A stretch of DNA of 64,000 bases from the IMG/VR virus record IMGVR_UViG_3300034072_002247. One strand, given 5' to 3'. This DNA comes from an uncultured virus (IMG/VR IMGVR_UViG_3300034072_002247) (lineage: Duplodnaviria > Heunggongvirae > Uroviricota > Caudoviricetes). The position numbers and the translations under genes were made by a program. The notes beneath the pieces are model-generated. The model made no database searches. It saw only the letters and a program-made list of their open reading frames with translations, and was not told where the DNA came from. Below, one piece after another: positions 2,678 to 48,497 of the stretch (position 1 is its first letter; the number at the start of each line of letters is the position of its first letter).

Positions 2678-5035
2678 ATGAGAGTTGTTTATTTTTTATC
2701 AGGAATGCCAGGAACTGGAAAAAGTACATTTATTAACAAGAATGAATTAGAAGCATTAACTATTTCATTAGACACACTTAGAAATATTTATTCAGGTTTA
2801 CAAACTGATTATATAGGAAATATTGTTTTATCCCAAGATAAAAATGATTATGTATATGCTAAATTTTTAGAAGCACTTAAATTTAGATTACAATTAGGTG
2901 GTAAAATTATTATAGATAATTTAAACCCAAAAAATAAAGACATTAAAGAAGTTGTTGAAATCTTAAATCAATATGACTATGATTATAAAGTTGTTCAATT
3001 TAAATTGGAAGATTTAAATTTTTATTTAGAAAGAAATAAGCAAAGAAGTAAATATAAAAGTATTCCAGAAGAAACTATAAAAAATATTTATAAACTATTT
3101 CAAGAAAGAGATTTTCCAAAAGATAAAATAATAACTCCTGAAGAAGCTATTAAAGAAATAAATGCCTCTCCTGAAGATTTACTTGAAGATGTTAGTCATT
3201 ATAAGAAAATTCACTTTATAGGTGATTTACAGGGTTGTTTTTATCCAATCTATAATTACTTAAAAACAAATGGAATAAAAGATGATGAACTTTATGTATT
3301 CTTAGGCGATTATATTGATAGAGGTATTGAAAATGATAAATGTTTAGAATTTGTTTTAAGCAATATACATAAGAAAAATTTTATATTTATAATGGGTAAC
3401 CATGAAAAACATTTATATAATTATAGCAATAATTTATTAAAGCCGCCAACTGAATTTATGTTGCAAACTTTGCCACAGTTGAAGCAGGCTAACTTCTCAA
3501 ATGATAAAATGAAAGAAGTTTATAGAAATCTTCATTTATTCAAATTTTTAAAACATAATGATAAAAAAATATTTGTATCACATGCGGGATTAATTACTAT
3601 TCCAGATAGACCTAATATATTAAATTTTGATGAATATATGAAAGGGCATGGTAGTTATGCATTTAATGTTGATGCTGCATTCCAAGAAAAAAATCAAACT
3701 AATGAATGGTATCAAGTTCACGGACATAGAAATAAATATAAATTAGATTTTAATAGTTATACAAAAAGCTTTGCGTTAGAAGCTGATGTAGAAAATGGTG
3801 GTAACTTACCTATTTTAAGACTTGATTCTAATGGTTTTGATGGGGTTTATATACATAATAAAATATTTAATAGAGAGTTAATAATGAAAAGAGAAAAAGA
3901 ACAAAATATGTTTTTAACAAAAGTTATAAATAGTAGTGTAGGTGAATTTTTAACAAGTAGAATTAATTATGATAAAAATGGATTAGAAATTATTAATGAA
4001 CTAAGAAAAAATGATCTTATTAGAGAAAAAACATTTGAAGATCTTCCTCATATATCTTCATTCAATTTCAAAAAACAAGCATTTTTTGATAAGAGATTTG
4101 ATGATGAATTAGTTATCCATGCAAGAGGATTATTCTTTAATAATTTAACAGGTGAAATTGTTGCTCGTGGTTTTGAAAAATTCTTTAATATTAATGAAAG
4201 AGGAATAGAGTCAGCTAAAATTGAGAATATTGAAAGAACATTCAAAATGCCAGTAACACTTTATGAGAAAGAAAATGGATTTTTAGGTTTAATTGGTTAT
4301 GATTCAAGTAATCATTCATTATTATATGCATCTAAAAGTGATATTGGTGGCGAATTTTCTCAATATCTTGAAAATATTGCTAAAACACAATTTAGTTCTG
4401 GAGAATTAGAATATTTAAAAATATTTGCTAACAAACATAATGTCAACTTTATATTTGAGGTTAATGATCCTATAAATGATCCACATATTATAAAATATGA
4501 AAAACCACATTTAGTTTTATTAAGTGTAGTAAAAAGAGAATTAAGATATTCTGAAATGTCTTATGACCACTTATTAGAATTTGCGAAAGAGTTCAAAGAC
4601 TTACCAGTTAAGAAAAAATTAGTACAAATTAACAATTTTAAATCTTTTATGGGCTTCTATAATTCAGTAAGTAAAGAAAGTGCATTAACTACAAAGAGAC
4701 AATTAGAAGGTTATGTTGTTCAAGATAATGATCTAAATATGGTTAAAATAAAACTACCTTTCTATAACTTCTGGAAATGTATGCGTGGTTTTATAGATCA
4801 GATGAATAATGCTGAAGATAAAAACAAAACATTTGAAATTACAAATACGGTTAACAACCATTTCTTAATTAATGATTCAGATAAAGAATCTGCTATTAAG
4901 TTTTTAGAATATGTTAAATCAATTCCAAGAGAAAACAGAGAAAGAGATATCATATCTTTAAGAGATGATTTCTTAAATAAAAATGATAATCAAAATAAGG
5001 TTGTTTTAGAAAAGAAAAATAAATTAAAAATATAA
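2678..5035 (+). CDS. Pnkp-like RNA repair fusion: P-loop kinase + calcineurin-like phosphoesterase + Rnl1-like RNA ligase
   Basis: GMPGTGKS Walker A; GDLQG, GDYIDRG, GNHE, HGH phosphoesterase motifs; ARGFEKFFN, EKENG, FIFE, EGYV, KIK ligase motifs. Confidence 0.85.
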   Translation: MRVVYFLSGMPGTGKSTFINKNELEALTISLDTLRNIYSGLQTDYIGNIVLSQDKNDYVYAKFLEALKFRLQLGGKIIIDNLNPKNKDIKEVVEILNQYDYDYKVVQFKLEDLNFYLERNKQRSKYKSIPEETIKNIYKLFQERDFPKDKIITPEEAIKEINASPEDLLEDVSHYKKIHFIGDLQGCFYPIYNYLKTNGIKDDELYVFLGDYIDRGIENDKCLEFVLSNIHKKNFIFIMGNHEKHLYNYSNNLLKPPTEFMLQTLPQLKQANFSNDKMKEVYRNLHLFKFLKHNDKKIFVSHAGLITIPDRPNILNFDEYMKGHGSYAFNVDAAFQEKNQTNEWYQVHGHRNKYKLDFNSYTKSFALEADVENGGNLPILRLDSNGFDGVYIHNKIFNRELIMKREKEQNMFLTKVINSSVGEFLTSRINYDKNGLEIINELRKNDLIREKTFEDLPHISSFNFKKQAFFDKRFDDELVIHARGLFFNNLTGEIVARGFEKFFNINERGIESAKIENIERTFKMPVTLYEKENGFLGLIGYDSSNHSLLYASKSDIGGEFSQYLENIAKTQFSSGELEYLKIFANKHNVNFIFEVNDPINDPHIIKYEKPHLVLLSVVKRELRYSEMSYDHLLEFAKEFKDLPVKKKLVQINNFKSFMGFYNSVSKESALTTKRQLEGYVVQDNDLNMVKIKLPFYNFWKCMRGFIDQMNNAEDKNKTFEITNTVNNHFLINDSDKESAIKFLEYVKSIPRENRERDIISLRDDFLNKNDNQNKVVLEKKNKLKI

Positions 5036-17055: not shown

Positions 17056-18183
17056 TTATATTTTATATTCTTCTACTAATTTAAAATATAATTCTTTAAT
17101 ATCTTCTTCAGTTGATTCAGTATTATCAAACTTTTGAATTCTACCAAAATGAGATTCAGATATTGCATTCTTAATAGAACTAATTTTTGAAGAATTAGAT
17201 TTCATATGTTTTATTCTATTGTCAGCATCATTTGTTTCTATATTTCTAAATGATTTTAATCTTAAATTTCTAACAGCAGAATCAGCATCTACAACAATTA
17301 CATGATTATTACAAATATTTAATAGATTTGCTTCAACTAACAATGCAGCATTAATTAAAATTATTCCTTTTTTATCTCTAAGTTCCTGTCTTAACAATAC
17401 CATTACAGGATCTTTAAAAATGTTATTCAAAAATTCTACATGCTCTTTAGAGTTTTCACTACCAAAAGCAATCTCAGCAATCTTTTTCTTATCAAGAGTA
17501 CCAAAATGTGAATTAATTTTTTCTCTAATAGATGCGTATGCTGGCTTTTCTTCTGTATATACTCTTTGTGCTAGTTTATCAAGTTCTATATTATGTACTA
17601 ATGGCATACTATCATTTTTTAGATTTTCTTCTTTGCTTATTCTAACTAGTTGTTCAGCAACATATGACTTACCAGAACCCATAATTCCAGTTATTCCATA
17701 AATTAATTGACTAGAAATTTTTCTTTCAAGTAATTTTTTAACTGGTAGAGGTACATATTCATGAATAAGTCCATTTTCTAATTGAATAGCTTTAACACTA
17801 CTTGAGCTTACATGAGAAAATTGAGACTTTGAGAATAAGAAAAATGTATCAATATTCATTTGAGAACTATTTATTTGATCTAAACTTTTTTCGAATTCAA
17901 AATCTGAAGCATTTCTTATGCCTCTAATGATAACATTTGCATTTTGCTCAAAAGCAAAATCAACAAGAAGTCCATCAAAAAACATTACTTCAACATTATG
18001 AAGAAATGCTAATGATTCTTTTGCAACTTTATATTTTTCTTCAGTTGTTAGTAAGTATTTTTTACTAGAATTAATACCTAATGCAACAATTAATTTATCA
18101 AATGATTGTGCAGCCCTTTTAATAATGTCGATATGACCGTAAGTGATTGGGTCACCAGATAATGCGTAAACTGCTATGCTCAT
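17056..18183 (-). CDS. coaD: fused phosphopantetheine adenylyltransferase (CoaD) and dephospho-CoA kinase (CoaE)
   Basis: DPITYGHIDII, IIRGIR...DFEFE, VSSSSVK; then YGITGIMGSGKS Walker A and ALLVE. Confidence 0.85.
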   Translation of the reverse strand: MSIAVYALSGDPITYGHIDIIKRAAQSFDKLIVALGINSSKKYLLTTEEKYKVAKESLAFLHNVEVMFFDGLLVDFAFEQNANVIIRGIRNASDFEFEKSLDQINSSQMNIDTFFLFSKSQFSHVSSSSVKAIQLENGLIHEYVPLPVKKLLERKISSQLIYGITGIMGSGKSYVAEQLVRISKEENLKNDSMPLVHNIELDKLAQRVYTEEKPAYASIREKINSHFGTLDKKKIAEIAFGSENSKEHVEFLNNIFKDPVMVLLRQELRDKKGIILINAALLVEANLLNICNNHVIVVDADSAVRNLRLKSFRNIETNDADNRIKHMKSNSSKISSIKNAISESHFGRIQKFDNTESTEEDIKELYFKLVEEYKI

Positions 18184-21149: not shown

Positions 21150-21917
21150 ATGATAAAAAAAATTTACAAAAGAAAGGCTGACAAAGTTCAAGAAGATTAT
21201 TTAAATAAAAACAATATTGAAAAAATAACTTTTTTTACTGGTGCTGGAATATCTAAAGAAAGTGGTTTATCAACTTTTAGAGATGAAGATGGTTTATGGA
21301 ATAATTATTCAATTAATGAAATAGCAACAGCAGATGCTTTAAAACATAATTTCGAAGTTGTTAATAAGTTTTATAATGAAAGAAGACAAGAAATTATAAA
21401 AGCTAATCCAAATAATGCTCATTTAGCTATAAAAGATTTTTCAAATAAATATAATGTATCAATTATAACTCAAAATGTTGATGATTTACACGAACGTGCT
21501 GGTTCTGAAAACATTATTCATCTTCATGGCGAAATAATGAAGTCAAGACCGATAGCAAATTCAAAAATATTTTATCCACAAAAAAATGATATTAAAATTG
21601 GAGATAGATGTATAGTAACTAACTCTCAATTAAGACCACATATAGTATTATTTGGAGAAAATCTTGATGAAGAACTTTATAATAAAGCAAAAAAAGAAAT
21701 TAGACAATCTTCTATTGTTGTAGTTATAGGTACATCATTACAAGTTAATCCAGCAAACTATCTTGTTACTGAAGCAAGCTTTAAATCTAAATTATTTATT
21801 ATAGATCCTAATCATATTGAATTAAGCTATATTCAAAAGTTTTACTCTGAAGTAGTTCATATAAAAGAAGTTGCTAGTAAAGGTATTGAGCAATTAAAAT
21901 CAATTATATTATTTTAA
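21150..21917 (+). CDS. cobB: Sir2/CobB-family NAD-dependent deacylase
   Basis: GAGISKESG.STFR, TQNVDDLHERAG, HGE, RPHIVLFGE, GTSLQV. Confidence 0.9.
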   Translation: MIKKIYKRKADKVQEDYLNKNNIEKITFFTGAGISKESGLSTFRDEDGLWNNYSINEIATADALKHNFEVVNKFYNERRQEIIKANPNNAHLAIKDFSNKYNVSIITQNVDDLHERAGSENIIHLHGEIMKSRPIANSKIFYPQKNDIKIGDRCIVTNSQLRPHIVLFGENLDEELYNKAKKEIRQSSIVVVIGTSLQVNPANYLVTEASFKSKLFIIDPNHIELSYIQKFYSEVVHIKEVASKGIEQLKSIILF

Positions 21918-24491: not shown

Positions 24492-25251
24492 TTATTTCAT
24501 TTATATTTTTAAATTTATAAATGTTTGATATTTCAATTACAATAGTGTTTTCATCAGAAAATGGAGTTTTATAAATAGCTATTTTTTCTAAATCAATGTC
24601 CAATTCAATATCTATATCTTCTTTTTTATAATAGCCTTCTATATTTCCATCTGGAACAACCGTGAAATATACATCTTCCAAATATATTTGGTTTAAAAAC
24701 TTAACTAAATTTTCTAAAACTTTAAAATTAACTTCATATGTTGAAGCATAAATGTCATAATCATTTTCAGATAATGCAACTTCTATTAAACTATCTATTG
24801 TTCTTTTTGAACAATATTTTAAATCATATAATAAACTTAATTTATGAAGTTCTTTATCATTATAAAATTCAAATTTATTATTAAATCTTATTTTAGATAA
24901 AACATAATCAGATATTACTATATCATAAGAAATAAAATCATTATAATAAGTAGTCATATTTTTTTCAAAAATTAATATATTAGTTATATTTATATCTTTC
25001 CATTCTAATATTAATTCACCTTCATATCCAAAAAATATATACAAATTTCTTTCAATATTTTTATTTTGCTTTATGAAAATTAAAGCTTTTTCTAATGATT
25101 TATAATTCATAGGATCTGCATTTTTACCATCCCAATTTTTTTCTATTTCTGATAATTCCACTAATCTATTATATTCTCTTTCATTTAAGTATTCATTGTA
25201 ATTACTAATTAAATCTAAAATTTCTTTATTCATTTTTTCACCTATATACAT
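24466..25251 (-). CDS. hypothetical protein
   Basis: 261-aa ORF with NWDGKNADP motif. Confidence 0.65.
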   Translation of the reverse strand: MYIGEKMNKEILDLISNYNEYLNEREYNRLVELSEIEKNWDGKNADPMNYKSLEKALIFIKQNKNIERNLYIFFGYEGELILEWKDINITNILIFEKNMTTYYNDFISYDIVISDYVLSKIRFNNKFEFYNDKELHKLSLLYDLKYCSKRTIDSLIEVALSENDYDIYASTYEVNFKVLENLVKFLNQIYLEDVYFTVVPDGNIEGYYKKEDIDIELDIDLEKIAIYKTPFSDENTIVIEISNIYKFKNINEIIEEINYEK

Positions 25252-25709
25252 TGAAATTTTTTGGTTATATGTTTTATATCTTCTTTTTTACAAGGACCGA
25301 TTCCTAAAGCAGTAATGATAGGTTTTCCATCAAAGTGTGGTGGTAATATATGACCTTGATCAACAATTAAAGCACAAGGAATGCCTTCAGATTTAGCCTG
25401 AATATATGCTTTTATTAAATGATCTTCATTTTTTGCTTTTAATGTAACTTTAGAACCACCAGATTGAGAATTTCTATAATTAGCAACATTTTCTGGATGT
25501 GTGTTTAAAGCATTCATTAATGAATCAGTGTATGCATGACCAGCCTGAGCAGATAGTTTTCCAGAAGGCATTTCTAGATCTGAACGAATGATTGCATATA
25601 TGTAATAGTGAGAGTCTTTAGAGTAATCTAAAGGTATTTTTTGAGTGTGAAGACGTATTAATTCTTCTTTTGATATTTTGCTTAAATCTATATTATCAAT
25701 TTACAACAT
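25242..25709 (-). CDS. pth2: peptidyl-tRNA hydrolase Pth2 with in-frame TAA at codon 3
   Basis: YIYAIIRSDLEMPSGKLSAQAGHA, KVTL, IVD, TALGIGP; the conserved first strand lies upstream of the track's Met (25571); the only upstream SD-ATG is 25709, followed by TTG-TAA. Confidence 0.85.
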
Positions 25710-30851: not shown

Positions 30852-31364
30852 ATGAAAAAAATTGCTACTTTAACTTTTATTGGAATTACTAGCATAATTG
30901 CTGGTTGTTCAACTGTTCATGTAGAAAAAGAACCTACTTTAAATAGTATTAAATGGTCTTTAGAAGATAAAAAAGTTTATTTAAGAACTATGTATGTTCA
31001 AGCAGACTTTAAAGAAAATGGTGATAGAAGAACTTTTAATGATTATGATTTTAGAAAAGAAACTGCACCTTGTACAGTAATTAAACAATATAGTCCAAGA
31101 ACATATGTTTATACAATTGAAAAAGATAAACAAACTTTAAACTTTGAATGTCGTCCTTATTTTGGTTATGAAAAACCAGACTTAAGAAGACTTTATTTAA
31201 TAGGTTCTATCAAAGATTGTGAAGATAGAACATGGGATTATAAAGCACCAGTTGTAAACTTTGACAAAAATGGATTTGTTGATGTTAAATCTATGTGCAA
31301 ACTACCAAAGAGAACACATTATAACGATTCTATAGAAAAACGTTATGTTGAATGGTTTAAATAA
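30852..31364 (+). CDS. lipoprotein
   Basis: GGAG SD; MKKIATL...IIAGC lipobox. Confidence 0.7.
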   Translation: MKKIATLTFIGITSIIAGCSTVHVEKEPTLNSIKWSLEDKKVYLRTMYVQADFKENGDRRTFNDYDFRKETAPCTVIKQYSPRTYVYTIEKDKQTLNFECRPYFGYEKPDLRRLYLIGSIKDCEDRTWDYKAPVVNFDKNGFVDVKSMCKLPKRTHYNDSIEKRYVEWFK

Positions 31365-31385
31365 AAGCTCCTTCGGGAGTTTTTT
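31365..31385 (+). terminator. intrinsic terminator
   Basis: GCTCC-TTCG-GGAGT followed by T-tract. Confidence 0.85.
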
Positions 31386-31386
31386 A

Positions 31387-31415
31387 TTTACATTTAAAAA
31401 AAAATAGTTTATAAT
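31387..31415 (+). promoter_or_regulatory. sigma70 promoter of the argS leader
   Basis: TTTACA-17-TATAAT. Confidence 0.75.
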
Positions 31416-31437
31416 CGCATTTTTAAAAGAGGAAAAA

Positions 31438-31509
31438 TCATGAAGCTCAGACGATTCTAAAATATTTATAAAATTTAAACATATAAACTATTTTAGGAGA
31501 GCATCATGA
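31438..31509 (+). promoter_or_regulatory. translational attenuator hairpin sequestering the argS SD and AUG
   Basis: TCATGA-a-GCTC-[AGACGA bulge]-TTCTAAAATA-TTTATA pairs with TATAAA-c-TATTTTAGGA-GAGC-a-TCATGA. Confidence 0.8.
31440..31460 (+). CDS. argS leader peptide MKLRRF
   Basis: AGAGGA SD; ATG AAG CTC AGA CGA TTC TAA; tandem Arg codons in front of ArgRS. Confidence 0.8.
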   Translation: MKLRRF

Positions 31510-33134
31510 AAAACAACATTATTAAAGATATTAATACTTATCTTTTATCTAAAAATATTAATCAAAATTTTAAACTTATTTATTCAAGTTATGAAGACTT
31601 TCATTATCAAACATCTTTATTATTTAGTTTAAAAAATAATAAAAATTTTGATACTACAGATTTTTTAAATTACTTAAAAAATACAAAAAACTATGATAAA
31701 GTTGAAATTACTGGAAATGGATTTCTTTCATTTAAACTATCAAATTTTTCTTATGAAAATGAAAGCATTAAAAAACAAGAAAAAATAATTGTAGACTATT
31801 GTGGCATAAATATAGCAAAAAAAATGCACATAGGCCATATTCGGTCTATGTTTACTGGTGATTTCTTAGTTCGGTTACACCAATATTTAGGAAATGAAGT
31901 TTTTATTTTTAATCATATTGGTGATTGTGGCAATCAATTTGGTTATCTAATAAATTATATTATTTCCAATGATATTAAAGAATTTAATAGTCAAGAACTA
32001 ACTGAACTTTATAAAAAAGCTTTTGTTAAATATAGTGAAGATGAAAATTTCAAGGAAAATTCTGATTTAATTGCCACTTCTTTACAAAAAAAATCCAATC
32101 TTAAAGTTTTGGAAATTTGGAATAAATGTGTAGAGACTAGTTTAAAAGATCTAGAAAAATTTATTAATCTTTTCTCCTTAAAAATGAATTTAAAAAATGT
32201 TCAAGGTGAAAGTTTTTACTATGACATGTGCAATGATATTGTTGAAGATTTAATATTTAAAAAAATTGTTAAGGTTGATATTGATAATTCAGTTTATTTT
32301 GAATACAAAAATTCTAAAATTGTTTTAAAGAAATCAAATGGTAATTTTTTATATTCAACTTATGATTTAGCAGCAATAAAATGGCGGAAAGACAATATTA
32401 ATCCAGATAAAATATTCTATGTTGTTGATAAACGGCAATCTAAACATTTTGACTTAATTTTTGAAATATCAAAACAAGCTGGGTACTCAAAAAACGTTGA
32501 ATTAATACATGTTCCTTTTGGAACTATAATTGATAAATCAGGAAAGCCACTTAAAACGAAATCAGGAGAGTCTTTATATCTTGAAGATATGTTAAATGAT
32601 GGATATGATGAAATATCTAAATTTGAGTATATACAAAAAATTCCAGAACAGATAAAAAATAAAATGATAAATACCGCATTAATATCAGCATTGAAATTTT
32701 ATGATTTAAAATTTTCTAAGGATAGTGATTATTTTTTTGATTGGAATAATATATTTGATATAAAAGGTGGAACTTCTGGATATATTCAGCAAACTTATGT
32801 TCGGATTGAATCATTAATCTTAAAATCAAACATTGAGTTAGATAATATTGAATTCAATTCTTTAAATTTAAATGACGAAGAAAATTATATTTTATTTAAT
32901 TCTTACAAATTAAAAGAAATAATTGATAATTTTGAAGGATTTCAGAGCAATTTAATAATTAATCAACTTATATATTTATGTGCCATTTTTAATAAATATT
33001 ATGAAAACAACAATATTAATTCAGCAAGTGATAAAATTAATAAATTAAAATTAATTATGAATATTAAAAATAATATAAAATTATCTGGTGATATATTAGG
33101 TCTGACTTTTTATAAACCTTTTAAAACACAATAA
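31506..33134 (+). CDS. argS: arginine--tRNA ligase
   Basis: VDY...NIAKKMHIGHIRS (HIGH), NHIGD.G.QFG, GESFY, Y.TYDLAA, YVVD.RQ..HF, FG......KPLKTKSG. Confidence 0.95.
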   Translation: MKNNIIKDINTYLLSKNINQNFKLIYSSYEDFHYQTSLLFSLKNNKNFDTTDFLNYLKNTKNYDKVEITGNGFLSFKLSNFSYENESIKKQEKIIVDYCGINIAKKMHIGHIRSMFTGDFLVRLHQYLGNEVFIFNHIGDCGNQFGYLINYIISNDIKEFNSQELTELYKKAFVKYSEDENFKENSDLIATSLQKKSNLKVLEIWNKCVETSLKDLEKFINLFSLKMNLKNVQGESFYYDMCNDIVEDLIFKKIVKVDIDNSVYFEYKNSKIVLKKSNGNFLYSTYDLAAIKWRKDNINPDKIFYVVDKRQSKHFDLIFEISKQAGYSKNVELIHVPFGTIIDKSGKPLKTKSGESLYLEDMLNDGYDEISKFEYIQKIPEQIKNKMINTALISALKFYDLKFSKDSDYFFDWNNIFDIKGGTSGYIQQTYVRIESLILKSNIELDNIEFNSLNLNDEENYILFNSYKLKEIIDNFEGFQSNLIINQLIYLCAIFNKYYENNNINSASDKINKLKLIMNIKNNIKLSGDILGLTFYKPFKTQ

Positions 33135-34221: not shown

Positions 34222-34300
34222 GGGGGCACATGTACCAATGGGCCGGCGAGGAAGGTTTGCACCTTTCCTGTGAAGAGTTCGATTCTCTTTGTCTCCACCA
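34222..34300 (+). tRNA. tRNA-Ala(TGC), atypical D-arm
   Basis: GGGGGCA/TGTCTCC with G3:U70, loop TT-TGC-AC, TTCGATT T-loop, ACCA. Confidence 0.8.
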
Positions 34301-34303
34301 AAT

Positions 34304-34449
34304 TTGTGCTATAGTTATATGTTGGTAAAATAGTTTTTATAGGTTAAAGTTTACAGTTCAATTCTGTATCACTTTATTATAAAGGATAGTTTAATTAGGT
34401 AAAACATTAACCATAGAAAAAGTATGTAGTTCGATTCTACATAGCACAA
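34304..34449 (+). ncRNA. anticodon-less double tRNA-like RNA (two tRNA bodies fused through the anticodon stems)
   Basis: acceptor TTGTGCTA/TAGCACAA; two D-arms with GG loops; two T-arms (TTCAATT, TTCGATT); internal closed acceptor hairpin; 13-bp connector 34334-47/34407-19; no CCA. Confidence 0.75.
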
Positions 34450-34455
34450 TAAAAC

Positions 34456-34531
34456 GGGGTGATAGCTCAGTTGGGAGAGCGTCTGAATGGCATTCAGAAG
34501 GTCGTGGGTTCGAACCCCATTCATTCCACCA
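34456..34531 (+). tRNA. tRNA-Ala(GGC)
   Basis: canonical cloverleaf, G3:U70, TCTGA-AT-GGC-AT-TCAGA, ACCA. Confidence 0.95.
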
Positions 34532-34543
34532 GATTTAAGATAT

Positions 34544-34618
34544 GGGCTTATAGTTTAATTGGGAAAATATCTGCCTTGCACGCAGAAGTTCAGAGTTCGA
34601 TTCTCTGTAGGTCCACCA
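34544..34618 (+). tRNA. tRNA-Ala(TGC)
   Basis: G3:U70, TCTGC-CT-TGC-AC-GCAGA, ACCA. Confidence 0.95.
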
Positions 34619-34623
34619 AATAT

Positions 34624-34700
34624 GTTCGCGTAGCTCAGTTGGATAGAGCAGCCGCCTTCTAAGCGGCTGGTCGTGGGTTCGAATCCCTCCGTGAACGCCA
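34624..34700 (+). tRNA. tRNA-Arg(TCT)
   Basis: GCCGC-CT-TCT-AA-GCGGC, GCCA end. Confidence 0.95.
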
Positions 34701-34702
34701 AG

Positions 34703-34787
34703 TTAAGTTAAAAATATAGGGTCAGAACCTATCTGCTGAATTTTATTAAATTTGGTGGTAATGTAACGGTAAACATATTTAACTTAA
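34703..34787 (+). ncRNA. circularly permuted tRNA-like RNA (T-arm, closed acceptor stem, D-arm order; YrlA-like module)
   Basis: closing stem TTAAGTTAAA/TTTAACTTAA; ATAGG-GTCAGAA-CCTAT; CTGCTGAATTT-TATT-AAATTTGGTGG; TA; ATGT-AACGGTAA-ACAT. Confidence 0.7.
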
Positions 34788-34792
34788 ATTAT

Positions 34793-34869
34793 GGGTCTGT
34801 AGTTCAGTTGGGAGAACGCTTCGCTTGCACCGAAGATGTCATGGGTTCGAATCCCATCAGTATCCACCA
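34793..34869 (+). tRNA. tRNA-Ala(TGC) with a bulged base in the acceptor stem
   Basis: GGGTCTG/CAG-T-ATCC, CTTCG-CT-TGC-AC-CGAAG, ACCA. Confidence 0.9.
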
Positions 34870-34874
34870 GTTAT

Positions 34875-34950
34875 GGGGTTTTAGTTTAATATTGATAAAA
34901 CGCCGGGGTTAAACTCGGAAATGCAAGGTAAACACTTGTAGACTCCACCA
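34875..34950 (+). tRNA. Ala-identity tRNA-like RNA with 6-nt anticodon loop
   Basis: GGGGTTT/AGACTCC with G3:U70 and ACCA; CCGGG-GTTAAA-CTCGG; non-canonical T-loop GTAAACA. Confidence 0.7.
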
Positions 34951-34960
34951 ATTTATATAT

Positions 34961-35035
34961 GGGCTGATAGTTTAATTGGGAAAATCCCTGCCTTGCACGC
35001 AGGAGTTCAGGGTTCGATTCCCTGTTGGTCCACCA
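34961..35035 (+). tRNA. tRNA-Ala(TGC)
   Basis: G3:U70, CCTGC-CT-TGC-AC-GCAGG, ACCA. Confidence 0.95.
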
Positions 35036-35047
35036 GATTTTTTATAT

Positions 35048-35123
35048 GTCCTCTTAGCTCAACTGGAAGAGCAATGACCTTCTAAGTCATAGGTTGTAGG
35101 TTCGAATCCTACAGGGGATGCCA
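35048..35123 (+). tRNA. tRNA-Arg(TCT)
   Basis: ATGAC-CT-TCT-AA-GTCAT, GCCA end. Confidence 0.95.
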
Positions 35124-35128
35124 AATAT

Positions 35129-35203
35129 GGGGATTTTAGTTTAACCGGGAAAACGGCTTGCAAGAGTGAGCAGTCTGTAGTTCAAGTCTACATATCTCCA
35201 CCA
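35129..35203 (+). tRNA. Ala-identity tRNA-like RNA with collapsed anticodon loop
   Basis: GGGGAT/ATCTCC with G3:U70 and ACCA; GCTTGC-AAGA-GTGAGC in place of the anticodon arm; intact D and T arms. Confidence 0.7.
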
Positions 35204-35209
35204 TATAAA

Positions 35210-35284
35210 GGTTCTCTAGCATAATGGTTAATGCACTCCGCTCATAACGGAATGATTCAGGTTCGATTCCTGGGAGAACCACCA
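35210..35284 (+). tRNA. tRNA with CAT anticodon (probably Ile2, possibly Met)
   Basis: GGTTCTC/GAGAACC, TCCG-CT-CAT-AA-CGGA, ACCA; no initiator features. Confidence 0.85.
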
Positions 35285-35290
35285 AATTAC

Positions 35291-35367
35291 GGGACTTTAG
35301 CTCAGTTGGTTAGAGCATCCGACTCATAATCGGCAGGTCGTAGGTTCAAGTCCTACAAGTCCCACCA
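35291..35367 (+). tRNA. tRNA-Ile2(CAT), reads ATA after lysidine modification
   Basis: CCGA-CT-CAT-AA-TCGG anticodon arm as in enterobacterial tRNA-Ile2, GGGACTT/AAGTCCC, ACCA. Confidence 0.9.
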
Positions 35368-35928: not shown

Positions 35929-36004
35929 GTCCATATAGCTCAACAGGAAAGAGCAACTGCCTCCTAAGCGGAAGATATAGGTTCGAGTCCTATTATGGAT
36001 GCCA
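35929..36004 (+). tRNA. tRNA-Arg(CCT)
   Basis: CTGC-CT-CCT-AA-GCGG, GTCCATA/TATGGAT, GCCA end. Confidence 0.9.
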
Positions 36005-39570: not shown

Positions 39571-41499
39571 ATGAAAGATAACAATATTGTTTCTAAATTA
39601 CAAAAAGAACAAGCAGTAGAAAATTTTAAAAAATGGTTTGGAAATAGTCAAATAATAAATAGTTCTGGAGAACCAGAAATTGTTTATACAGGTACTTTAT
39701 CCGATTTCACTGTTTTTGATTACTCAAAATCTAACAATCAAAATTTTTTCGGTAAAGGTTTTTATTTTAGTAGTTCTATTGAAGATGTTAACTCAAATTA
39801 CGCAACGGTAAAAGGGCCAGATTTTGAAATAAAATATGATAAAATTAAAGAAAACTTTTTCAGAATCATGGAAGGATATGATGAATTCAATAAAGAAGAT
39901 ATAGATTATTTTATATCTTTATCTAACAACAAATCTATTGAACAACCAATTTTGTCTGCTGTTCAAAAACTTTTAAGTTGTATAGATGAAGTTGAAGATT
40001 ACAGTGAGATGACAGAAGAAGAAATGGACTTAATAAGTACTAAATACATAAATGATAAACTATCAGTTGATAACCAAGGATTTATTATACCAGCATATAT
40101 AAAGATGGAAAACCCTTTAAGAGTTGATCATGACTTTTTAGAGAAAGAAGAAAAAATATCTGGTCAAGAATTTGAAAGAATTCTTTCTAAGTTTGAATCT
40201 TTATTTAATTTTGATAAATCAGCTTTATATAACGAGTTCTATCACCTTTTTTCAGATATAAATGAAGAATATTCTATTGAGTTTGATGAATTTGAAGAAA
40301 TAGCAGAAAATTTCAGACATTATATATTTGAAGAAGATGAAGATACATATGAAGAAAAATATTTAGAATTTATAAATTTTGCGAGAGATGTATTTGACTC
40401 AGATTACATTAATATAACATATGAACTAAATGGCTCTCTTATTGAATTTAAAGACAGATTTAAAAGAAAACTACAAGATTTGGGATTCTTTAATGAAGCA
40501 GACAATTTCGAATCTTTATTTTCTGAGAAATATTTAATTGAAGAAACTGTTTATGTTAGAGATATATTAAAAAATGAAGATATAGATATGTTAATAATGG
40601 ATCTATTTCCTATGGATAATCAATTTGATAATGATTGTTTCATATATAAAGGATTATGTGCAGCTATATTTCAAGAAATGGGTTATGATGGAATTATTCA
40701 AGAAGCATTTAAAGAGTTTAAAACAATGAAAAACATTTCAGAGGCTTATCATTATATTGTTTTTAACAGTAATAACATAAAAAGTGCTATAGGAAATAAT
40801 GGTGAATATTCTTTAACTGATAATGATATTAGATATAGAATTAATTATAGAATGCAAGAAGATTATCGTAAGAAAATTTCCGTCAATACTAAAGATTGCG
40901 AAAAAATAATTAAAGATATAAAAGAACAATATTCAAGTTCTCCAAATATTATTTTAATAAAAAATAAATTAGAAATTGATAAAGAACTTTTAAACCAGCA
41001 TAAAGATATTTTAAATAGCTCTGGATATTATTTAAAAGAAAAAAATTCTGTCTATATAATGCTAGAGAATATAACTGGAAGAAAAGACTTTATTAAGACT
41101 ATAGCTCATGAAATTTTTGGGCATATGAGTTTACAAGAAATTTTAAAAAATAACTATACACCATTTTTAAATAAAGTTTATGATTTTTATGATAAAAAAG
41201 GATTACTAGAAGAAGAGAAAAAACATTACTCTTCTATATATGGAAATAATTTTAACGACATAAATATTAAATCTAAAATTGCTGAAGAAAAAATGGCTAA
41301 TGTAATTGAAGAACAAGGTTTTAAAAATTTTCCACTTAAAAATGTAATTATAGGAGCAATAAAAAACTCTTTAAGAAAATTATTACCTAATATTCCATTT
41401 GGTAATAGTGATATAATTTATATTGCTCAACAAACTCATAATAATTTAAAGAAGAAAAATAAAAAGGAAAATAAAATAAAAAATAAAAACCGCTTTTAA
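39571..41499 (+). CDS. polyvalent protein: ART-PolyVal-like domain with acidic insert + zincin-like metallopeptidase
   Basis: NFKKWFG.S....GEP.IVY.GT, GKGFYFS, GYDGII, YIVF....IKSA.GNNG; AHEIFGH...EE. Confidence 0.7.
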   Translation: MKDNNIVSKLQKEQAVENFKKWFGNSQIINSSGEPEIVYTGTLSDFTVFDYSKSNNQNFFGKGFYFSSSIEDVNSNYATVKGPDFEIKYDKIKENFFRIMEGYDEFNKEDIDYFISLSNNKSIEQPILSAVQKLLSCIDEVEDYSEMTEEEMDLISTKYINDKLSVDNQGFIIPAYIKMENPLRVDHDFLEKEEKISGQEFERILSKFESLFNFDKSALYNEFYHLFSDINEEYSIEFDEFEEIAENFRHYIFEEDEDTYEEKYLEFINFARDVFDSDYINITYELNGSLIEFKDRFKRKLQDLGFFNEADNFESLFSEKYLIEETVYVRDILKNEDIDMLIMDLFPMDNQFDNDCFIYKGLCAAIFQEMGYDGIIQEAFKEFKTMKNISEAYHYIVFNSNNIKSAIGNNGEYSLTDNDIRYRINYRMQEDYRKKISVNTKDCEKIIKDIKEQYSSSPNIILIKNKLEIDKELLNQHKDILNSSGYYLKEKNSVYIMLENITGRKDFIKTIAHEIFGHMSLQEILKNNYTPFLNKVYDFYDKKGLLEEEKKHYSSIYGNNFNDINIKSKIAEEKMANVIEEQGFKNFPLKNVIIGAIKNSLRKLLPNIPFGNSDIIYIAQQTHNNLKKKNKKENKIKNKNRF

Positions 41500-47891: not shown

Positions 47892-48497
47892 TTAACTTAA
47901 AAGTTCAAACATTTTTAGATCATCTCCACATTTATTTTTTAGTCTATCTATCCAGGCTTGATTTTTAACTTTGCAGCGAATAATTTTATTTTTTAAAAAT
48001 GCTTTACCAATTACACCTTCAAATGTCATTCCAGAAAAATTACCTTCTTTTATTTCTTTCATAACAATTTGATTTAATCTAAATATGCCTAAAAATTCTG
48101 CCATATCTATATTATCAAAAGCCTTAATGTAATCTTTGGGTGGTAAATATCCTATTTTACCTATATGTGCATCTATTAATTTTACTTTAAAATTATCATT
48201 TTCTTCATGAAATCCTGCAAATGATTTATCTCCATAAAATTCAAAAAATAATGTACCATCCTGCCATTTATTTTTTTTAAAAATATCATATACTGCTTTT
48301 TCATTTTGCATTATTAAGTCTTTTGATAAATTTAAAATACCTGAATCATCAGACATCAACTTTTTTCTGGTTCCAAATTTATCAAATCCTTTTTTTAATG
48401 AGAATTCAACTCTTATATTGGAGCCATCTAATTTATCAAATAGATAATAATCTAAATCTTTTATAACTTCTTTATTAATACTTGGATACTGTTGCAT
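47892..48497 (-). CDS. small RNA-ligase-family nucleotidyltransferase (Rnl2-like)
   Basis: YPSI, DKLDGSN (motif I), FGTR, FFEFYG, FEGVI, KVKN. Confidence 0.75.
   Translation of the reverse strand: MQQYPSINKEVIKDLDYYLFDKLDGSNIRVEFSLKKGFDKFGTRKKLMSDDSGILNLSKDLIMQNEKAVYDIFKKNKWQDGTLFFEFYGDKSFAGFHEENDNFKVKLIDAHIGKIGYLPPKDYIKAFDNIDMAEFLGIFRLNQIVMKEIKEGNFSGMTFEGVIGKAFLKNKIIRCKVKNQAWIDRLKNKCGDDLKMFELLS

Follow-up and report, generated by a model that had tools for sequence, protein, structure and literature searches.

An arginine-poor arginyl-tRNA synthetase behind an arginine-codon leader: a candidate inducible rescue enzyme of a megabase mobile element

The argS locus and its leader

The DNA analysed here is a stretch of 64,000 nucleotides (the window) from the uncultured virus record IMGVR_UViG_3300034072_002247, about 6% of an element of 1,042,066 bases (1.04 Mb) with about 22% GC, and the codon usage and tRNA content given below for the element were counted in this window. 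It carries argS, encoding an arginyl-tRNA synthetase (ArgRS), together with a short leader open reading frame (ORF) and a hairpin in front of the gene and tRNA genes behind it (Table 1). The protein has the catalytic domain PF00750 (E 3e-66) and the DALR domain PF05746 (E 1e-11), its top PDB matches are ArgRSs, and three relatives tested pass the 261.65-bit cut-off of the curated argS model TIGR00456 with 300, 286.8 and 270.3 bits. The HIGH motif lies at residues 108-111, the KMSKS-equivalent K350 is present, and the arginine-pocket residues D118, N123, H132, Y313, D317, R324 and Q341 (E. coli numbering) are kept, with Gly in place of E. coli A121. The A20 pocket retains its Phe, while its Asn is Ser in 117 of 119 family rows, compared with Asn in 135 of 136 cellular rows. 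The N-terminal domain PF03485 was undetected in the window protein and is listed for some relatives.

Table 1. Features of the argS locus, in window coordinates unless another record is named.
Feature	Position	Strand	Evidence and remarks
Arginyl-tRNA synthetase, 542 amino acids (aa), 5 Arg all CGG	31506..33134	+	PF00750, PF05746; TIGR00456 244.7 bits
Predicted intrinsic terminator of upstream gene	31363..31390	+	1 terminator-like site vs 0.0 expected in shuffles
Candidate sigma-70-type promoter	31387..31415	+	11/12 consensus matches, 17-nt spacer
Shine-Dalgarno of leader ORF	31428..31432	+	sequence; unpaired in computed fold
Putative leader ORF MKLRRF, six codons	31440..31460	+	tandem Arg codons AGA (31449), CGA (31452); translation predicted
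26-pair hairpin, candidate translational attenuator	31438..31509	+	joins leader ORF to argS Shine-Dalgarno (31495-31499) and start codon
CGG, Arg113	31842..31844	+	E. coli R134, after HIGH; R in 118/119 family rows, 100% of control rows
CGG, Arg123	31872..31874	+	E. coli R144; R in 95/119 family rows, 96% of control rows
CGG, Arg294	32385..32387	+	E. coli R324, holds D118 in arginine pocket (PMC3956977); invariant
CGG, Arg310	32433..32435	+	E. coli R340, beside Q341; invariant
CGG, Arg433	32802..32804	+	E. coli R466, anticodon-binding domain; R in 116/119 family, 136/136 control rows
tRNA array	34224..35367	+	Ala x5, Arg(UCU) at 34624 and 35048, two CAT-anticodon tRNAs, degenerate tRNA-like units
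tRNA-Arg(CCU)	35929..36004	+	tRNA gene
SrmL PheRS-like gene	L174:538-1638 = G001 159137-160237	-	0 Phe; NF051887

A first-pass annotation, made from the sequence without database searches, had claimed that this ArgRS contains only five arginines, all encoded by CGG, and that arginine elsewhere in the window is mostly AGA with some CGT; short of an exhaustive count, it had spotted no further in-frame CGG. The codon count bears out each of these claims. After 27 short overlapping ORFs had been removed by hand, 70 of the 97 window ORFs were kept, argS included, and the 470 Arg codons of the other 69 comprise AGA 406, CGT 37, AGG 16, CGA 6, CGC 5 and CGG 0, with AGA making up 86% of the Arg codons in the window. 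CGG is therefore anything but common here, and its use at 5/5 sites in argS against 0/470 elsewhere is highly non-random (Fisher P 5e-12). The same triplet occurs 39 times out of frame in those 69 ORFs, so it is not missing from the window DNA. In other respects the gene (21% GC) is ameliorated and typical of the element, both in its GC content at third codon positions (0.13, window median 0.11) and in its G-ending fourfold codons (3/119, compared with 100/4601 in the other ORFs). The low arginine count alone is moderately unusual: 14.2 would be expected from window composition (P 0.004), and a regression of Arg count on composition over 111 outgroup ArgRSs gives 9.8 (z -0.8). The strength of the purge lies in the family pattern and in the lack of any arginine outside five conserved sites.

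The argS unit is set apart from the gene before it by that gene's predicted terminator. The promoter is a candidate by its consensus match, one such site being found where 1.5 are expected in shuffles of this AT-rich stretch. The hairpin that follows has a computed energy of -20.0 kcal/mol (z -5.8), and none of 200 shuffles was as stable. In the free RNA, the argS ribosome-binding site has an unpaired probability of 0.08, which rises to 0.62 when a ribosome footprint is masked on the leader. This opening is alike with the ribosome at the Arg codons or at the leader stop, so control would have to be exerted through dwell time. Two changes found in a related strain (see below) fall inside the hairpin, both on unpaired bases, which make up 20 of its 72 positions.

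Among the matches listed by the alignment scans, two further family loci came with DNA, L001 and L004, and they have leaders of another architecture. Their leader ORFs, of 35 and 32 codons, contain the Arg triplets CGC-AGG-CGA and CGC-AGG-AGA, respectively. Some 45 bases ahead of argS comes a terminator, which marks both as computed transcription attenuators; no transcription terminator was found between the window leader and argS. Folding of the nascent RNA of L001 and L004 suggests that an antiterminator forms while the ribosome occupies the Arg codons, but not once it has reached the stop, whereas in the whole RNA the terminator is the minimum-energy fold in both ribosome states. The end helix of the antiterminator differs between these two sequences by a two-sided change. 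In all three loci the leader ORF has Arg codons and a ribosome-binding site; Arg-codon leaders thus stand at 3/3 family loci with DNA, in a translational (window) and a transcriptional (L001, L004) form, and no Rfam family matches them. Leader-peptide attenuators are well known from E. coli his and pheST, and translational attenuation from ermC/cat-type genes. The E. coli trp attenuator likewise places a short ORF with cognate codons and alternative RNA pairing before the controlled gene (PMC1183508). In contrast to trp, his, pheST and ermC/cat, arginine would here be sensed and argS controlled, on a mobile element.

Arginine depletion in the ArgRS family

The family was defined by best protein matches and a profile search, and it forms a clade apart from cellular ArgRS (FastTree support 0.99-1.0, 80 chosen rows). 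A length of 500 aa or more is reached by 116 members; the Arg count is 4-6 in 88 of them and 4-9 in 100. At matched composition the median is 5 Arg (n=90) in the family and 17 (n=29) in the outgroup, a ratio of 0.32, and in a second matched set 13 (n=26) vs 27 (n=66). The depletion is specific to arginine, no other residue having a ratio below 0.77, and even Ala/Gly/Pro-rich members such as P0110 and P0112 still carry 5 Arg. Cellular argS genes, taken as controls from the matches listed by metagenome and genome scans, keep at least 13 Arg in 134 of 134 distinct cases, and those at 25-29% GC keep 13-16, mostly AGA. The five arginines kept by the family correspond to columns that are 96-100% Arg in cells, and alignment to ArgRS homologs, the check that the first-pass annotation had proposed, shows near-universal Arg sites kept and others lost across the clade. 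Its further claim of Lys in place of Arg applies to a sixth near-universal column, KTR, which reads Lys in 107/119 family rows and Arg in 135/136 cellular rows (99%). As a general rule it does not stand: Lys fills only 8 of the 26 positions at which the E. coli arginine is lost, and the purge is therefore not a simple R-to-K swap. Outside the family, the outgroup proteins P0187 and P0207, of moderate composition, have only 7 and 6 Arg and are possibly independent purged lineages. No family member was found in the phage, plasmid or E. coli collections, and a viral-contig scan with a single protein gave no family locus.

The relatives with DNA show which parts of the codon pattern are shared. 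The argS of L001 has CGT x4 and CGG x1, and that of L004 CGT x5. In the L001 record, AGA and AGG account for 827 of 1289 Arg codons and CGG for 15, and the lack of either among the five L001 argS codons has P 0.006. The shared rule is purge plus avoidance of AGA and AGG; pure CGG belongs to the window lineage only. AGA avoidance alone was considered as the cause of the purge and set aside, because host-like L001 genes avoid AGA yet keep 9-18 Arg. The L001 and L004 leaders also contain CGC, which is served by the same tRNA as the CGT of their argS, and no tRNA gene was found in the L001 record. Thus the proposal that leader and enzyme use complementary codons, with synthesis running through a CCG isoacceptor, can hold only for the lineage of the window and fails as a general rule.

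Reads were compared for 4 of 22 listed runs, of which three gave identical or partial cover. One strain contig contains a divergent full argS copy with 44 differences, 16 of the 29 listed coding changes being silent. No change of a G hits a CGG and all five are kept, a weak test given that it concerns five codons.

A neutral origin, in which AT mutation pressure removed arginine and CGG was carried over from a GC-rich donor, would suit a gene of 21% GC whose Arg count lies only 0.8 SD under the composition regression. We reject it, as AT-rich cellular ArgRSs retain 13-16 Arg, Arg-codon leaders recur at all three loci, and the diagonal of cognate depletion in the phage record described below has no compositional explanation. 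Donor carry-over, which the first-pass annotation had itself raised as a source of the codons, is not supported either: the gene is ameliorated, and the relatives have CGT at the same sites and leaders of their own.

Cognate residues in other synthetases

The depletion is not confined to arginine. The L001 record encodes SrmL (NF051887), a single-chain protein resembling phenylalanyl-tRNA synthetase (PheRS; other synthetases are abbreviated likewise), with 0 Phe in 366 aa where 20.3 are expected, the strongest depletion among 217 ORFs x 20 residues. It is preceded by a leader of 29 codons with 6 Phe codons and a terminator-like hairpin. No Phe is present in 89 of 116 full-length homologues, and plasmid copies from Glutamicibacter and Azotobacter have 0 and 1 Phe (upstream ORF extension), respectively.

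A 508-kb IMG/VR phage record (G002; loci L187, L188, L190, L194, L196, L205) encodes 18 synthetases, identified by best Pfam and NCBIfam matches, 15 of which have 0-1 cognate residues. The cognate residue is absent from the enzymes for Asp (0/425), Pro (0/368), Val (0/509), Trp (0/240), His (0/211), Phe (0/366), Tyr (0/359) and Ile (0/742), the Trp and His zeros being weak alone since 3 and 4 are expected. It is nearly absent from those for Ala (0-1), Thr (0-1), Gln (1/539), Lys (1/400), Gly (1/266), Asn (1/392) and Arg (1/391); the true starts of AlaRS and ThrRS probably lie further upstream, at a cost of no more than 1 cognate residue each. Cognate residues are retained by SerRS (12/423), LeuRS (20/421) and GluRS (20/508), and in two of these the codons are restricted, 20/20 Leu being TTG (14% background) and 12/12 Ser being AGY (27% background). 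The single Arg codon of the divergent ArgRS-like protein, which homology search missed and an NCBIfam match identified, is CGT. Many of these synthetases adjoin cognate tRNA genes. The family searches run on G002 turned up neither a CysRS nor a MetRS. Many of its synthetases are also compact (LeuRS 421 aa, ValRS 509, HisRS 211, ArgRS-like 391), and its GluRS is poor in Gln as well (2 vs 15).

Three GenBank huge phages (LR745206.1, LR756501.1 and LR756504.1; L210, L211 and L212), of which about 41 kb each was examined, gave nine synthetases, seven with 0-1 cognate residues. These seven include two ArgRS-like proteins with 0 Arg (392 and 393 aa) and a LeuRS of 508 aa that has no Leu; the other two are a LeuRS with 18/18 Leu as TTG and a GluRS with 6 Glu vs 37.5 expected. 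Judged from sequence, the cognate-purge design is general beyond arginine. The missing residue could then serve as an annotation tool: on this basis the "mystery ligase" SrmL would act on Phe, and the 391-aa minimal ArgRS-like phage protein on Arg.

Proposed role and competing explanations

Considering these results together, the best overall explanation in our view is that this megabase mobile element has in argS the gene of a rescue (bootstrap) ArgRS that can be induced, with a probability of roughly 0.75; the rescue design, taken by itself, is very probable. As the computed folds suggest, ribosomes would clear the six-codon leader fast while Arg-tRNA is plentiful, and the hairpin would mask the site where ribosomes bind argS. 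Failure of the Arg-tRNA that reads AGA or CGA would stall a ribosome on the leader; the hairpin would then be kept open and argS be translated. Because the five remaining arginines use a codon that the element's other genes in the window do not, synthesis would be independent of the failing tRNA pools, and the new enzyme would recharge tRNA-Arg, including the UCU and CCU tRNAs of the element, restoring translation of its AGA-rich genes. We put the trigger at even odds as a loss of host aminoacylation capacity, the host ArgRS being inhibited, inactivated or overloaded; this trigger is favoured because an extra enzyme helps only if arginine and tRNA remain. Second-copy resistance synthetases such as MupA IleRS, TrpRS II and SerRS2 are comparable, in that a spare, often mobile or inducible enzyme replaces the inhibited housekeeping one. 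No bacterial ArgRS inhibitor turned up in the literature searched.

The claim that the enzyme is shaped to stay translatable when Arg-tRNA is limiting is upheld in its core, by the purge, the minor-isoacceptor codons, the Arg-codon leader, the lack of donor carry-over and the LeuRS and SerRS parallels, and gives way where the CCG route is extended beyond one lineage. Selection for such translatability is thus supported, as far as sequences can speak for it. In most bacteria, ICG and CCG tRNAs split the CGN box (PMC3711424, in the part available), and selective-charging theory also covers synthetase inhibition (PMC1183508, likewise).

The same rescue design could have another trigger, namely an anticodon nuclease or tRNA-modifying defence toxin that destroys tRNA-Arg(UCU) or (ICG) and spares CCG, with the element giving resistant tRNAs together with the charging enzyme. 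We consider this rather unlikely. The leftover codons are held to one isoacceptor box in Arg, Leu and Ser, cognate tRNA genes adjoin many of the enzymes, and the window encodes an RNA-repair ligase of three domains, PTH2 and a weak match to a second RNA ligase. The tRNAs of the pMEGA megaplasmids of Enterobacteriaceae have been proposed to counter tRNA nucleases (bioRxiv 10.1101/2025.09.30.679422, accessible part), and the Ser for Asn in the A20 pocket of the family may mean altered tRNA recognition. The tRNA-Arg genes of the window (UCU x2, CCU x1), however, all three retain A20 as read from their D-loops, so that they should be substrates of the host ArgRS, with no need for a new enzyme. Moreover, the purge is complete in the synthetases for Val, Thr, Ala, Pro, Gly and Ile, though other isoacceptors could serve. 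Orthogonal element tRNAs are disfavoured by the same A20. No tRNA-Arg CCG or ACG gene is among the tRNA genes of the window, in agreement with the first-pass annotation, which had reported an array lacking tRNA-Arg(CCG).

Plain arginine starvation, or the AGA load of the element itself, would combine cognate bias with selective charging, a higher-affinity enzyme scavenging arginine. The dominance of AGA in the window fits such a load, the codons CGG, TTG and AGY are each listed as starvation-insensitive in E. coli (bioRxiv 10.64898/2026.02.22.707322, accessible part), and cognate bias, in which a protein relieving an amino-acid shortage avoids that amino acid, is documented for biosynthetic enzymes (PMC4209129, accessible part). 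We nevertheless hold this explanation to be unlikely, since more synthetase cannot substitute for a missing amino acid, cellular ArgRSs keep their arginines in every control, and zero residues in proteins of 500-740 aa imply near-total loss of supply. According to the same part of PMC4209129, arginine biosynthetic enzymes show high bias and a high, not low, Arg content; our case differs also in concerning mobile-element synthetases with near-total depletion. Selective charging, in which sensor leaders use sensitive codons and rescue proteins the codons of still-charged isoacceptors (PMC1183508 and bioRxiv 10.64898/2026.02.22.707322, in the parts available), resembles the rescue ArgRS proposed here and differs from it in that one codon is used at every residual site here and the refuge codon varies by lineage (CGG vs CGT).

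CGG might also act as a brake or second sensor, in positive feedback of the kind modelled for E. coli argA, or belong to a changed genetic code. A whole-cell model of tandem CGG in argA gives the former some precedent (PMC10325894, accessible part), but the five CGG of argS are scattered, a brake leaves the removal of all other Arg unexplained, and CGG aligns with near-invariant Arg columns and is thus read as Arg. We regard both as very improbable.

Several observations weigh against the inducible rescue ArgRS that we prefer. The window protein scores just below the TIGR00456 cut-off, and its codon 141 (31926-31928) is Cys where the family has Trp, which corresponds to E. coli W162, a residue important for activity (PMC3956977, accessible part); the divergent close strain carries Trp there. 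In L001 and L004, argS uses CGT at 9/10 sites, CGT is the codon of host-like genes in the L001 record as well, and it is absent from the E. coli insensitive list in the accessible part of bioRxiv 10.64898/2026.02.22.707322. In the E. coli whole-cell model, as far as the accessible part of PMC10325894 goes, low ArgRS activity is predicted to affect CGG more severely than any other codon. The Arg count is 11-25 in sixteen of the 116 family members, some of these branching from among purged relatives, 5 of the 111 outgroup ArgRSs have 6-9 Arg, and family rows share descent, so that P values overstate independence. The GluRS of G002 keeps 20 Glu, and the TyrRSs of the cultured jumbo phages BF and GAP32 (L208, L209), with 13 and 11 Tyr in 420 aa, are unpurged. 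Finally, the isoacceptor set and charging pattern were assumed for a host whose assignment via OmpA, ClpA and tRNA similarity went no further than "proteobacterial-like" for OmpA and ClpA.

The pattern is real, strongly non-random and one instance of a wider one, and we see the rescue ArgRS as taking two known principles, cognate bias and selective charging, to an extreme. The literature searched, which lay mostly outside subscription journals, yielded no account of synthetases free of their cognate residue and none of a mobile-element argS attenuator. Genomes of huge phages can encode as many as 15 synthetases, for which charging of the phage tRNAs has been proposed as the role (PMC7162821, accessible part). 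In the available parts of PMC7162821, PMC7824862 and PMC12619734 their composition is not discussed, nor is codon choice in that of PMC7162821, and "cognate" is absent from the PMC7162821 main text, although supplements may bear on this. Only tentatively, and at less than even odds, can the argument be extended to a general counter-defence kit on giant plasmids and huge phages, whose synthetases, each translatable without its own aminoacyl-tRNA, would restart translation after a synthetase or tRNA family had been shut down by a host defence or by the toxin of a competitor. If so, the purge would point to undescribed defence systems that target charging with almost all of the amino acids, and the spared isoacceptor could be read off from the refuge codon. 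For the question of why huge phages and megaplasmids encode tRNA synthetases of their own, the rescue design supplies an answer open to test. As an extreme natural case of both principles, the locus also has an experiment built in (five codons, two sensor codons and one hairpin), and synthetases without their own amino acid would be useful for cell-free self-regeneration and genetic-code reduction.

The element is like pMEGA in size (>1 Mb), low GC (about 26% in pMEGA) and tRNA blocks, and shares with it an RNA-repair ligase, PTH2 and NT5C as Pfam families in common with its Table S9 (bioRxiv 10.1101/2025.09.30.679422, accessible part); this likeness is one of size, GC, tRNA block and gene families. 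The same source lists five pMEGA synthetases (Ala, Ser-like, Trp, Pro, His). In contrast to our element, its accessible part has no ArgRS among the pMEGA4 translation rows, "arginyl" or "argS" only in a host row, and no mention of cognate depletion. No close plasmid or phage record for the window was found in the collections searched, and no core bacterial operon among 50 window proteins scanned. Family members sit on contigs of 1.3-2.3 Mb. The L001 record, of 180 kb and 27% GC, is classed as a provirus and has large multicopy repeat-protein arrays, and its proteins recur on a 2.23-Mb contig. A wider class of low-GC megabase elements is suggested. GC in the bins of our window ranges from 0.18 to 0.36. 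Genes of counter-defence or repair type lie at 2678-5035, 17056-18183, 21150-21917, 25242-25571, 39571-41499 and 47892-48497, the families at these six loci being a kinase-phosphatase-RNA ligase fusion, a cytidylyltransferase-like/CoaE fusion, Sir2, PTH2, ART-PolyVal and the weak second RNA ligase. In the tRNA array, the five Ala genes are mutually divergent, degenerate tRNA-like units lie near 34300-34450, 34875 and 35128, and the CAT tRNA at 35291 is presumably of the Ile2 type, which it resembles.

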